Shown in pieces: positions 4,942-7,533 of a stretch of DNA of 11,183 nt (positions within the stretch are counted from its first letter, which is position 1; each line of letters starts with the position of its first letter). Position numbers and translations under genes: made by a program. Source of the DNA: Capsulimonadales bacterium (GTDB lineage: Bacteria > Armatimonadota > Armatimonadia > Armatimonadales > Armatimonadaceae); the NCBI GenBank assembly GCA_033762295.1, contig JANRLW010000097.1:1-11183 (forward strand). Reading direction: 5' to 3'. The notes below the pieces were generated by a model, which searched no databases, was not told the DNA's origin, and was given only the letters and a program-made list of their open reading frames with translations.

Positions 4942-7533
4942 ATGCGTTCCCTGATGTGCGCGGCGCTCCTGCTTCTCCTTCCGCTGCCGTCCCCTGCTCA
5001 ATCGACGCAACGCTCCCCGAAAAGGACGATCGCTATGCCCGTCCCCTCCACCCGAGACCTCGATGCCCGCGCCGAAACGCTCTGCGCCAAACTGGAAAAC
5101 GCCGTCTACCGCGCGGAGGTGCGCCCACACCCGATCCGAAACAGTGAGCGATTCTGGTATCGGAACCGACTCCCGAAGGATCGAACCGAATTCGTACTGG
5201 TCGATCCGACCGTCCCTCGCAAAATGCCGGCATTCGATCATGCCAGGGTCGCGGCCGCGCTGACCAAAATCCTCGGGAAGCCGGTTCAAGCCGATCGCCT
5301 GCCCGTTCGCTTCCTCCTGTTCGAGCCGGACGGCAAAACGTTGCTTCTCGCCGTCGACGAGCAAACCTTTGCCTGTGATCTGACCACTTATGCCCTGACA
5401 ACGAGCGAACGCGCTCTGATGACCGCACCTCCCCTTGCGCCAGGCGACGCGCCCGCGACATCGCCGCCCGGAAATGGGGAAACGTCCCTTTCCCTGCTCA
5501 ATCGCACGCCCTTCCCGGTCCGCGTCTTCTGGCGCGATTTCTCCGGGAATCTGCGTCCCTACGGTTCCCTTCTCCCCGGTCGGAGCCAGGGGCAGCGGAC
5601 TTACGCCGGACATGTTTTCGAGATCCGGGATGAATCCGGCAAGCCGCTCGTCGCCTTCGTCGCCCCGGAGGAAAGCGCCACCGCCGTGATCGCCGCGCCG
5701 TTTCCGGAAGCGGCAGCCGTCAGCAACCGTCCCGCCCCACCGCTCCGGACGCAGGAAGACCGCCCGTCCGTCTTCGTTCGCAACTTCAATGTCTATCTGA
5801 GAACGGAAGAGGGTACGGACCTCGCTCTGACAACCGACGGAACCGCCGGCAACGCGTACGAAGGCGAGCCGGTCTGGTCTCCCGATCGCTCCAAATTTGT
5901 CCTCCTGCGCACCGAACCGGCGCAGGAACACAAGGTCGTTCTCGTCGAATCCTCGCCCGCCGACCAGGTCCAGCCCAGGGTTCGAACCATCGATTACCTG
6001 AAACCGGGCGATCGTATCGCCCACTCGCGCCCGGCTCTCTTCGATGTTGCGACCCGCCTCCAGATTCCGATCCGGGACGAATGGTTTCCGAATCCGTGGG
6101 AGATTTCACGGATCGACTGGGAACCGGACGGCTCGCGGTTCCGCTTCCTCTACAACCAGCGCGGACATCAGGTGATACGCTGGCTCGCCGTCGACGCCGT
6201 CACCGGGGCGGTCCGCCCGATCGTCGAGGAGACCGCGAAGACCTTCATCGACTGGTCAGGAAAAACCTTTCTGCGTCCGCTCGACGAAACCCGCGAAGCG
6301 ATCCTGATGTCCGAACGCGACGGGTGGAATCACCTCTATCTCTACAATACCGACACCGGCACCGTCAAAGCGCAGATCACGCGCGGTTCGTGGGTCGTGC
6401 GCGGGGTCGAAGACATAGACGAAGCGAAACGGCGCATCCGGTTCACCGCCAGCGGTATCGTCCCCGGTCAGGACCCCTACCTGGTGCATCACTGCCGTGT
6501 CAATTTCGATGGCACCGGCCTCACCGTTCTGACCGACGGCGACGGCGACCACACGTTATCCGTTTTGCCGGGCGGCCGGTATGCCGTCGATACCTTCTCC
6601 CGCGTCGATGCGCCCCCGGTGACCGTTCTCCGGGACGCCGAAACCGGAAAAACCCTCCTGCCCCTCGAAACGGCGGACCTTACCGAATGGCGGAAGGCCG
6701 GAGGACGCCTGCCGGAACGGTTCGTCGCCAAAGGGCGCGACCGTACGACCGACATCTTCGGGATCGTTCACTTCCCCCACCGGTTTGACCCGACCCGCCG
6801 TTATCCCGTGATCGAAGCGATCTATGCCGGACCGCAAGCCGCACATGTCCCCAAACGGTTCTCCCCCGCCTATCGAACCATCGCCTCGCTCAACGAGGCC
6901 GGTTTCTTCGTCGTACGGATCGACGGCATGGGAACCTCCTTTCGATCCAAGGCGTTTCATGATGTCTGCTGGAAAAACCTTGCCGACGCCGGGTTTCCCG
7001 ACCGCATCCCCTGGATAAAAGCCGCGGCGGAGCGCTGGCCGCAGATGGATCTGTCCCGCGTCGGAATCTACGGCACCTCGGCGGGCGGTCAGAACGCCCT
7101 CGGCGGACTTCTGCAACATGGCGATTTTTACCGTGCCGGTGTCGCCGATTGCGGCTGTCACGATAACCGGATGGACAAGATCTGGTGGAACGAGCAGTGG
7201 ATGGGCTGGCCGGTCGGCGAGGAGTACGCCGCGCAGAGCAATGTCACCATGGCCCCGAAACTGACCGGCAAGCTGCTCCTCCTCGTCGGAGAAACCGATA
7301 CGAACGTCGATCCCGCCAGCACGATGCAGGTCGTGAACGCCCTGATCAAGGCCGACAGGGACTTTGAAATGCTGGTCGTTCCGGGCGCGGATCATGGCGT
7401 TCTCGGTATCCCCTATGTCCGCCGACGCATGATCGATTTCTTTCTGCGCTGCTTCCCCTCGCCCGCCCGATCCTCACGCAGACCTGACAAAGCGCCGGGC
7501 TTGACAGCCGCCTCGAACGGAGGTAAATTGTGA
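4942..7533 (+). CDS. Exported S9 family (DPP-IV-like / prolyl oligopeptidase family) serine peptidase with an inserted VHL-beta-like domain
   Basis: 863 aa with signal peptide MRSLMCAALLLLLPLPSPA|Q. DPP-IV N-terminal propeller motifs WSPD and SERDGWNHLYLY, plus IYAGP. Catalytic triad: S713 (GTSAGG), D786 (GETDTNV) and H818 (GADHG). Confidence 0.92.
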   Translation: MRSLMCAALLLLLPLPSPAQSTQRSPKRTIAMPVPSTRDLDARAETLCAKLENAVYRAEVRPHPIRNSERFWYRNRLPKDRTEFVLVDPTVPRKMPAFDHARVAAALTKILGKPVQADRLPVRFLLFEPDGKTLLLAVDEQTFACDLTTYALTTSERALMTAPPLAPGDAPATSPPGNGETSLSLLNRTPFPVRVFWRDFSGNLRPYGSLLPGRSQGQRTYAGHVFEIRDESGKPLVAFVAPEESATAVIAAPFPEAAAVSNRPAPPLRTQEDRPSVFVRNFNVYLRTEEGTDLALTTDGTAGNAYEGEPVWSPDRSKFVLLRTEPAQEHKVVLVESSPADQVQPRVRTIDYLKPGDRIAHSRPALFDVATRLQIPIRDEWFPNPWEISRIDWEPDGSRFRFLYNQRGHQVIRWLAVDAVTGAVRPIVEETAKTFIDWSGKTFLRPLDETREAILMSERDGWNHLYLYNTDTGTVKAQITRGSWVVRGVEDIDEAKRRIRFTASGIVPGQDPYLVHHCRVNFDGTGLTVLTDGDGDHTLSVLPGGRYAVDTFSRVDAPPVTVLRDAETGKTLLPLETADLTEWRKAGGRLPERFVAKGRDRTTDIFGIVHFPHRFDPTRRYPVIEAIYAGPQAAHVPKRFSPAYRTIASLNEAGFFVVRIDGMGTSFRSKAFHDVCWKNLADAGFPDRIPWIKAAAERWPQMDLSRVGIYGTSAGGQNALGGLLQHGDFYRAGVADCGCHDNRMDKIWWNEQWMGWPVGEEYAAQSNVTMAPKLTGKLLLLVGETDTNVDPASTMQVVNALIKADRDFEMLVVPGADHGVLGIPYVRRRMIDFFLRCFPSPARSSRRPDKAPGLTAASNGGKL
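5461..5691 (+). other. VHL (von Hippel-Lindau) beta-like domain within the peptidase, approx. aa 174-250
   Basis: NRTPFPVRVFWRDFSGNLRPYGSLLPGRSQGQRTYAGHVFEIRD aligns without gaps to human pVHL N78-D121, recalled from memory (17/44 identical by manual count). It is flanked by Pro/Ala-rich linkers. Confidence 0.8.
7501..7529 (+). promoter_or_regulatory. Sigma70-type promoter for mqnE, embedded in the 3' end of the peptidase gene
   Basis: Perfect TTGACA (7501-7506), a 17-nt spacer, then TAAATT (7524-7529), which keeps the key -12T, -11A and -7T. The predicted TSS is near 7536, about 40 nt before ATG 7576. Confidence 0.75.

Follow-up and report, generated by a model that had tools for sequence, protein, structure and literature searches.

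A homologue of the pVHL beta domain inserted in a predicted exported S9 peptidase, and the link of the enzyme subfamily to hydroxyproline catabolism

The peptidase gene and its inserted domain

The stretch of DNA analysed here (hereafter the window) is an entire contig of 11,183 bases, C97, from the 5.16 Mb, 94.5% complete genome of a Capsulimonadales bacterium. It carries a gene for a serine peptidase of family S9B, and the subject of this report is a segment inserted in the N-terminal part of that protein, related to the beta domain of the human von Hippel-Lindau protein, pVHL. In textbooks pVHL is the protein that reads prolyl hydroxylation, and no other handle is used as much for targeted protein degradation. 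Sequence comparison places its homologue here in a ubiquitin-free, enzyme-tethered setting, in an architecture that databases already hold. The best named homologues of the protein, and its neighbours in the tree, belong to the Armatimonadota, of the Chthonomonas type. The features of the gene are as follows; amino-acid (aa) numbers are those of the encoded protein.

4942–7533, + strand: S9B serine peptidase gene (similar to dipeptidyl peptidase IV, DPP IV, and to prolyl tripeptidyl peptidase, PTP) with the VHL-like insert, 863 aa; from the open reading frame (ORF), translation, Pfam and PDB relatives
4942–5001, + strand: signal-peptide-like N-terminus, about aa 1–20; hydrophobic 10-mer from residue 4, mean Kyte-Doolittle value 3.08
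5047–5436, + strand: N-terminal element common to bacterial S9B peptidases, aa 36–165, upstream of the insert
5419–5481, + strand: Pro/Ala-rich linker preceding the insert, aa 160–180; P+A+G+S fraction 0.67
5473–5691, + strand: VHL-beta-like domain, about aa 178–250; Pfam match to aa 185–232 at 5494–5637
5500–5502 (N187), 5530–5532 (W197), 5560–5562 (Y207), 5599–5601 (T220), 5611–5613 (H224) and 5617–5619 (F226), + strand: codons of the pocket-equivalent residues, from the pVHL alignment
5692–5772, + strand: Pro/Ala-rich linker behind the insert, aa 251–277; P+A+G+S fraction 0.50
5770–6618, + strand: DPP IV-type beta-propeller, aa 277–559; Pfam PF00930 (DPPIV_N), E 3.5e-37
6880–7455, + strand: S9 alpha/beta-hydrolase catalytic domain, aa 647–838; Pfam PF00326 (Peptidase_S9), E 1.8e-41
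7078–7080 (S713), 7297–7299 (D786) and 7393–7395 (H818), + strand: codons of the catalytic triad, from the PTP alignment and homologue conservation
7150–7203, + strand: subfamily signature C-G-C-H-D-N-R-M-D ... W-W-N-E-Q-W-M, aa 737–754, from a 36-homologue alignment

An earlier description of this DNA (hereafter the sequence-only reading) had proposed an exported enzyme with the domain set between Pro/Ala-rich linkers in its N-terminal region. The hydrophobic, signal-like N-terminus indeed suggests export, and a comparable hydrophobic stretch begins 97 of the 120 listed homologues. The composition of the two linkers bears out the proposed setting, as does the block-like insertion seen in the alignment described below. 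The N-terminal element of aa 36–165 gave no match in the Pfam scan, and its structural neighbours in the Atlas are the N-termini of S9/DPPIV_N proteins with or without a VHL domain, with TM scores of 0.76–0.83; it can also be aligned with insert-less homologues. The ORFs that overlap the gene (4837–6024 and 5033–5461 on the - strand, 5435–5689 on the + strand and 5786–6109 on the - strand) have no Pfam match, and a look-up listed no public sequencing run for the gene.

The insert is homologous to the beta domain of pVHL

The sequence-only reading had placed a VHL-like domain at 5461–5691, which in the frame of the gene corresponds to aa 174–250, and had named a comparison with the Pfam VHL model as a check that could fail. 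A search of the whole protein with PF01847 (VHL beta) matched aa 185–232 with 28.6 bits and an E value of 1.5e-6, above the gathering score of 21, and covered columns 14–61 of the 82 in the model. The isolated 77-aa piece scored 33.7 bits, and the same place scored 32.3 bits in the genome scan.

When aa 151–286 were compared by phmmer with 177,635 PDB sequences, 24 distinct pVHL sequences were returned, with E values from 2.3e-4 to 1.4e-3, and no other significant match was found, leaving pVHL as the only significant relative in that set. The alignment is gapless; the residues quoted in the sequence-only reading, aa 187–230, are present in the translation, and its figure of 17 identities over these 44 positions was reproduced by counting. 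In chain 8qvu_F (213 residues), residues 74–122 align to aa 183–231 of the query, so that a pVHL residue number equals the query number minus 109.

A profile (A2) combining the query insert with 46 inserts of S9 relatives from named species genomes (n = 47) matched pVHL in the PDB with an E value of 5e-12 and 48.9 bits over 60 columns; no bacterial structure was matched, and the next match had an E value of 0.012. An Atlas model of aa 170–260 has TM scores of 0.83–0.89 to other VHL-annotated bacterial domains. By these sequence and profile comparisons the segment is confirmed as a true homologue of the pVHL beta domain, far beyond what chance would give.

Compared with the human domain (PF01847; 1lm8, 1lqb, 8qvu), to which model and profile relate it, the insert keeps the equivalents of the pocket residues and of N78, but it is exported by prediction, lies inside a hydrolase, is shorter past the fourth strand and stands outside any ubiquitin-ligase context. 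The alpha domain with its BC box (VHL_C, PF17211) has no match in the protein at E ≤1, and none was found in the source genome, a weak negative since the control genomes gave no match either. The insert is thus no member of the CRL2-VHL ubiquitin ligase, with which it has only the reader half in common, and a ubiquitin-ligase-like role was rejected, as no alpha domain was matched and the protein appears to be exported.

The residues aligned to the pVHL hydroxyproline pocket are the best conserved of the domain

In pVHL, residues W88, Y98, S111, H115 and W117 are reported to bind hydroxyproline (Hyp). The alignment pairs N78 with N187, W88 with W197, Y98 with Y207, S111 with T220, H115 with H224 and W117 with F226, which reproduces the mapping of the five pocket positions given in the sequence-only reading. 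The changes of Ser to Thr at 220 and of Trp to Phe at 226 are conservative relative to pVHL, and the pVHL-type pocket residues are therefore, as far as the alignment can tell, kept or conservatively replaced in the insert.

Conservation of these residues among bacterial homologues had been set beforehand as a test, and at each scale of comparison they are among the best conserved positions. In an alignment of 36 S9 homologues (the query and 35 others chosen for spread from the 120 listed, at 50–61% identity), N187, W197, T220 and H224 are invariant, and Y207, G202, G213, G223 and a Trp at position 226 are kept in at least 90%, while most remaining positions of the insert are variable. Across the 47 inserts, which come from several phyla, no variation occurs at the N, W, Y and H, and the T, G and W are present in at least 90%; the inserts of this set share a mean pairwise identity of 33%, the enzyme bodies one of 60%.

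An exhaustive search with aa 165–265 matched 1078 representative clusters at E ≤1e-3, while a word-index search with aa 160–270 alone recovered only the query itself. A bacterial hidden Markov model (HMM) located 388 VHL-like copies, 1–12 per protein, in the best 150 of the 1078 representatives. Over these copies, whose proteins differ widely in architecture, the Asn is conserved in 98%, the first Trp in 87%, Tyr in 63%, Thr in 80% (Ser in a further 11%), His in 82% and the second Trp in 83% (Phe in a further 12%), which puts the pocket-equivalent positions at the top in conservation, along with two glycines and an Asp.

The insert is an optional module at a fixed site

At least 598 relatives of the enzyme that carry the two signature motifs were pulled from species genomes, and the best 80 were analysed. 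Among these 80, 77 are full length, and by the bacterial HMM 46 of them carry the insert and 31 do not. In the alignment the insert is present or absent as one block, between the element of aa 36–165 and the start of the propeller; the site is identical in all insert-bearing relatives, and the insert-less homologues have a short Arg/Gly-rich linker in its place. One of the 31, from Horticoccus sp. (L039), retains a decayed VHL-like remnant in which the Asn is kept, the pocket Trp is replaced by Arg and the pocket His by Glu. In its sister L038 the domain is gone entirely, and in the relative L004 it is intact.

A tree of the enzyme was built from the propeller and catalytic part (78 rows, with the incomplete sequences L026, L042 and L082 omitted). 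The presence of the insert changes state 16 times on the FastTree tree, with at least 9 changes forced by well-supported branches, and 12 times on a quick IQ-TREE tree (LG+G4). Placing all 47 insert-bearing rows in a single clade cost 146.8 log-likelihood units (p-AU 0.016), in a test that was run after the FastTree outcome was known. The distances between inserts correlate with those between enzyme bodies (Mantel r 0.61, with 0 of 2000 permutations as high). The simplest history is a single old insertion, followed by vertical co-inheritance and repeated loss, and the module is useful yet dispensable.

The enzyme body and its subfamily signature

The best PDB relatives of the enzyme are structures of the Porphyromonas gingivalis PTP (2d5l, 2z3w, 2dcm; E 2.5e-42), followed more weakly by bacterial DPP IV, and all are S9B peptidases. 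PTP and bacterial DPP IV are exported enzymes that act on proline-rich peptides. The query shares with them (2d5l, 2z3w, 2dcm, 5yp1, 2ecf) the propeller and the S9 hydrolase, and the catalytic triad and the oxyanion Tyr align. The DPP IV alignments begin at aa 455, short of the region of the double-Glu motif. The triad aligns to the PTP triad motifs as S713 (in G-x-S-x-G-G), D786 and H818, where the catalytic Asp is D786 and not D790; in the 36 homologues S713 and D786 are invariant and H818 is kept in at least 90%. With both Pfam domains present as well, the description of the protein as an S9 peptidase with an intact triad is upheld.

The enzyme differs from PTP and DPP IV in several respects. 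Identity is about 30% or less, neither relative has a VHL insert, and the motif CGCHDNRMD...WWNEQWM stands in place of the S1-lining stretch. In full, the signature reads C-G-C-H-D-N-R-M-D-K-x-W-W-N-E-Q-W-M, with little or no variation among the 36 homologues; from the DPP IV residues and the PTP alignment I take it to stand where DPP IV and PTP have their hydrophobic S1-lining stretch. Its composition might make for a more polar, roomier S1 pocket suited to hydroxyproline, and its Cys-x-Cys-His-Asp cluster could bind a metal. The residue next after the catalytic Ser is Ala, not Tyr. No equivalog model of NCBIfam fits the enzyme, Dpp5 scoring 27.8 bits against a cut-off of 900.

The S9 subfamily is tied to trans-4-hydroxyproline catabolism

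The trio 4HypE, DAAO and DHDPS makes up the trans-4-Hyp pathway (PMC4113996). In the source genome, contig C130 carries a co-directional operon of the order DHDPS, Pro_racemase, DAO (locus L084, 8155–11278). On the two 4-hydroxyproline-epimerase models its Pro_racemase member reaches 430.5 and 426 bits, slightly below their cut-offs of 450 and 442; the proline racemase model gives 209.6 bits and the trans-3-Hyp dehydratase model 185.5. The operon is followed by an unnamed ORF of 162 aa, and the opposite strand carries an RraA-like gene and a 1300-aa fusion of hydantoinase/oxoprolinase A and B. No aldehyde dehydrogenase, the last step of the pathway, was seen in the 19 kb around the operon.

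A prolyl hydroxylase of family PF13640 was not found in the source genome at its 94.5% completeness, so that any Hyp would come from outside. Neither was DUF885, nor a collagenase of family Peptidase_M9; the latter is a weak negative, since the control genomes gave no match either.

The wider link was sought at two levels. In the cross-phylum set of 80 loci, 5 have a Pro_racemase gene no more than 6 kb from the S9 gene, with DHDPS, DAO, DUF885 or GntR alongside; L033, L038 and L071 are insert-less, and L061 and L078 bear the insert. For the home phylum, members of the S9 subfamily were defined by a match to aa 277–863 of the query at E ≤1e-120, and 301 genomes were sampled, 97 of which have the S9 subfamily and 77 Pro_racemase. 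Both are present in 64 genomes; 33 have only the S9 enzyme, 13 only Pro_racemase and 191 neither (odds ratio 28, Fisher p 9e-28, a significance that is overstated as the tests ignore kinship). Expressed otherwise, Pro_racemase is found in 64 of the 97 S9 carriers and in 13 of the 204 non-carriers, and in 39 of the 62 genomes with a VHL match and 38 of the 239 without.

Physical linkage points the same way. In the home phylum, a Pro_racemase gene is no farther than 15 kb away for 11 of the 54 insert-bearing S9 genes, and in a twelfth case (G226) the S9 gene is cut by the end of the contig. In the 11 loci examined, the genes typically follow the order DHDPS>epimerase>DAO>S9, all in one direction and 48–250 bp apart. 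L085, L088 and L089 have exactly this order, L086 has S9>epimerase>DAO with a 48-bp gap, and L087 and L092 are variants in which DUF885 lies between or beside the Hyp and S9 genes. All 11 retain the pocket set N/W/Y/T(S)/H/W(F). The S9 subfamily, with or without the insert, is thus tied to trans-4-hydroxyproline catabolism, and this is the new evidence reported here.

Several of these loci carry further genes of interest. A DUF885 gene lies directly beside the S9 gene, in or near Hyp clusters, in six loci from three phyla (L033 1834–4047, L038 2834–5905, L071 about 7802–9448, L087 1063–2682, L092 1713–3329 and L106 11329–13323). It has no NCBIfam name, and a literature search on it yielded nothing useful; its product may be a partner peptidase of the S9 enzyme. 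Among the Hyp clusters with an insert-bearing S9 gene, that of Armatimonas sp. (L078/L093) includes, in L078, a papain-family C1 peptidase, a GntR/FCD regulator and a sulfatase. The L061 cluster has a 490-aa cyclophilin-type prolyl isomerase, which recalls the peptidyl-prolyl isomerase of the Colwellia collagen cluster, and an ankyrin-repeat protein.

Secreted M9 collagenases that are clustered or co-regulated with Hyp genes are described in two reports, in the HypR regulon of Streptomyces (PMC6608401) and in a Colwellia cluster (bioRxiv 10.1101/2020.05.13.093005). As far as the passages of these reports and of PMC4113996 show, the known Hyp clusters have the same trio of epimerase, DAO/dehydrogenase and DHDPS-type deaminase. 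Their peptidase is an M9 collagenase, whereas the one found here is a putative S9B exopeptidase, often with a VHL-like insert, and the same passages mention no such S9 enzyme and no VHL domain.

VHL-like domains in other bacterial proteins

Of the 120 best full-length homologues, 113 are already labelled PF01847 in precomputed annotation, so the architecture has been catalogued in public databases. Of the 301 genomes of the home phylum, 62 have a VHL match, nearly always only one and in a frame of about 810–990 aa, which marks these as S9 fusions; the source genome has one. The Pfam-based counts understate how often the insert occurs, because the Pfam model can miss it: in Novipirellula rosea (G301, locus L024) Pfam VHL has no match at E ≤1e-5, and the S9 insert scores 61 bits with the bacterial HMM.

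Elsewhere, VHL-like domains stand alone, form tandem arrays, or lie beside RicinB lectin, Tectonin, DM9-ankyrin or PASTA domains. Further partners are Big_1 with a tail of the type IX secretion system (T9SS), class-3 lipase, patatin, TIR, an ATLF-type metallopeptidase domain, CAP, caspase, LRR and a sulfatase cluster. Among 131 representatives of at most 1200 aa the commonest partner is DPPIV_N, in 19 proteins, and the others occur in 1–3 each, a ranking biased by the query. A group of proteins of about 1700–2140 aa (P0122–P0129, P0132, P0139, P0142 and P0144) carries 5–12 VHL-like copies in tandem with hardly any other Pfam domain, an arrangement that suggests avidity for a repetitive polymer.

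Prokaryotic VHL beta domains are of unknown function according to PMC7736814. That source describes the accessory protein of type X retrons, a member of the same Pfam family that resides in the cytoplasm, tethered to the membrane, and is fused to an IHF-like domain; unlike the window protein, it has no peptidase and no Hyp gene context. A Litorilituus VHL-domain protein is described in silico in PMC9002001. No experimental study of bacterial VHL domains was found in a literature search that covered openly available papers, and searches for bacterial VHL together with a peptidase, Planctomycetes or an EF-Tu hydroxylase found nothing relevant.

What the insert may bind

I consider the chances about even that the insert is a non-catalytic exosite, binding Hyp- or Pro-containing peptides for the peptidase. 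The exported S9B exopeptidase subfamily marked by GCHDNRMD and WWNEQWM would then act upstream of trans-4-hydroxyproline catabolism, trimming Hyp/Pro-rich peptides from collagen-like or plant/algal cell-wall proteins of other organisms. The insert, 75–90 aa on flexible Pro/Ala-rich linkers between the N-terminal element and the propeller, would offer a pocket made of an aromatic cage (W197/Y207/F226) and a hydroxyl-bonding pair (T220/H224), and would hold such peptides by the propeller entrance, raising their local concentration for the active site. Small peptide products would be imported, and free Hyp consumed through the epimerase, D-Hyp dehydrogenase and deaminase operon. The peptidase probably helps these bacteria to feed on collagen-like or plant cell-wall proteins. 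The binding of Hyp/Pro by the pocket and its benefit to catalysis, like the natural substrate and the location of the enzyme beyond export, I infer.

Carbohydrate-binding modules and the collagen-binding domains of M9 collagenases offer an analogy in the way of working only, and no sequence relation is claimed. Like such modules, the insert would be a small beta-sandwich on flexible linkers, optional, and found also in tandem or on unrelated enzymes; unlike theirs, its proposed ligand is neither a glycan nor a triple helix but a modified residue within a peptide.

A number of observations weigh against the exosite. The insert is dispensable to the enzyme (12–16 state changes, a single clade rejected at p-AU 0.016, and the remnant in L039). 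The query itself has F226 where pVHL and at least 83% of homologues carry Trp, and R219 where pVHL (H110) and most S9 homologues carry His. The window gene is not beside Hyp genes, its neighbours being a DUF2490 and a radical-SAM gene, and the Hyp operon lies on C130. Nor is the Hyp link specific to the insert: of the cross-phylum loci, 3 of the 31 that lack the insert and 2 of the 46 that have it show the link, and since insert-less members share it, the link bears on the substrate of the enzyme and not specifically on the ligand of the insert. In the home phylum, Pro_racemase also lies within 15 kb, on the same contig, of 6 of the 44 S9 genes that lack a VHL match at the level of Pfam, a class that is impure because Pfam misses some inserts and some of the frames are long enough for a diverged one. 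The co-occurrence counts come from kin and are not independent, and 23 of the 62 VHL-bearing genomes of the home phylum have no Pro_racemase.

The Planctomycetota add to this. Their sample comprised 251 genomes, 31 with a Pfam VHL match, and 33 loci were examined, the centre genome's own being excluded; 22 have a full S9 gene, one has S9 fragments and 10, a small set, are non-S9. Pro_racemase, DHDPS or DAO was found within about 9 kb in 0 of the 33, which leaves VHL domains that are not part of the S9 enzyme with no demonstrated Hyp link. There is no universal operon partner either, as the largest cluster obtained when the 616 flanking ORFs of 81 loci were compared all against all by BLAST covers only 7 loci (a sulfatase).

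These data also bear on a rather unlikely alternative, that the insert binds another ligand, either a sugar on hydroxyproline-rich glycoproteins or mucins or some other polymer, in a lectin-like or CBM-like (carbohydrate-binding module) reuse of the pocket. The varied company of VHL-like domains, with RicinB, Tectonin and DM9, PASTA, Big_1 with its T9SS tail, lipases, patatin, TIR, LRR and a sulfatase cluster, would suit a broader or different ligand and counts against the exosite as well; arrays of up to 12 copies are typical of binders of repetitive polymers, and the VHL loci outside S9 lack the Hyp genes. Aromatic residues with His and Thr are, moreover, common in sugar sites. Set against this, the sole characterised relative, pVHL, is said to bind hydroxyproline through exactly these residues, the commonest identifiable partner is a peptidase of the proline family (DPPIV_N, 19 of 131, with the query bias noted above), and the enzyme family that hosts the insert is tied to Hyp catabolism.

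It is less probable still that the insert is structural, serves oligomerisation or anchors the enzyme in the cell envelope, with no part in the choice of substrate. Its dispensability and repeated loss, its flexible linkers and the occurrence of the same domain on unrelated exported enzymes would all agree with such a role, but a structural spacer would not keep its pocket residues, on the surface by homology to pVHL, near-invariant at 33% insert identity, and an anchor would still require a ligand. An intramolecular regulator, whose pocket would bind the protein's own Pro-rich linker or gate the propeller entrance until substrate displaces it, is very improbable: the Pro/Ala-rich linkers on both flanks and the position immediately ahead of the propeller would allow it, but the linker sequences are not conserved among homologues, and the arrangement is impossible for tandem and stand-alone VHL proteins. 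Finally, a chance or compositional likeness, with the segment a variable propeller loop, can draw on the alignment of only some 48 residues and on the modest single-sequence PDB E value of 2.3e-4, and is refuted, to the extent that sequence statistics allow, by the score above Pfam gathering, the profile E value of 5e-12 to pVHL alone, the 1078 representative clusters matched and the presence or absence of the segment as a unit.

A wider history can be proposed as a less likely possibility: the pVHL pocket would be an old bacterial exported receptor of Hyp peptides that served feeding on hydroxyproline-rich proteins, the S9 body a dedicated Hyp-peptide peptidase, and animal oxygen sensing would have recruited the module to read the hydroxylation of HIF. 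As part of the same proposal, the S9 subfamily, with its more polar S1-lining segment, would carry out a ubiquitin-free, Hyp-directed proteolysis.

With a single copy, an intact pocket and an enzyme family found with Hyp operons, the S9 insert is a concrete and cheap test case for bacterial VHL domains. If the pocket binds Hyp, a ligand would be named for a large domain family (the 1078 representative clusters), and the insert would be a new kind of peptide-directed exosite on what is probably a new family of Hyp-peptide peptidases. Their hosts would be bacteria of soil and water (Armatimonadota, Planctomycetota, Verrucomicrobiota), recyclers of collagen and of plant/algal cell-wall glycoproteins, and the origin of the VHL-HIF reader would come within reach of experiments. 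Should the pocket not bind Hyp, its conservation still points to another ligand worth finding.

Other genes in the window

The neighbours of the peptidase gene encode GH26-like, AhpC/TSA, GFO/IDH/MocA, ThuA, DUF2490, radical SAM (MqnC/CofH-like), SpoU methylase and gamma-glutamyltranspeptidase proteins, and show no relation to the VHL domain or the peptidase. Long ORFs opposite real genes (3860–4771 on the + strand, 8700–9755 on the - strand, 10120–11181 on the + strand and 148–1095 on the - strand) have no Pfam match and are probably artefacts of the 60–66% G+C content. A GH26-like protein with TPR is encoded at 202–1608, and a complete gamma-glutamyltranspeptidase at 9607–11175. The genes for a GFO/IDH/MocA oxidoreductase and a ThuA-like protein adjoin at 2213–4006 on the - strand, a common sugar-oxidation pair.

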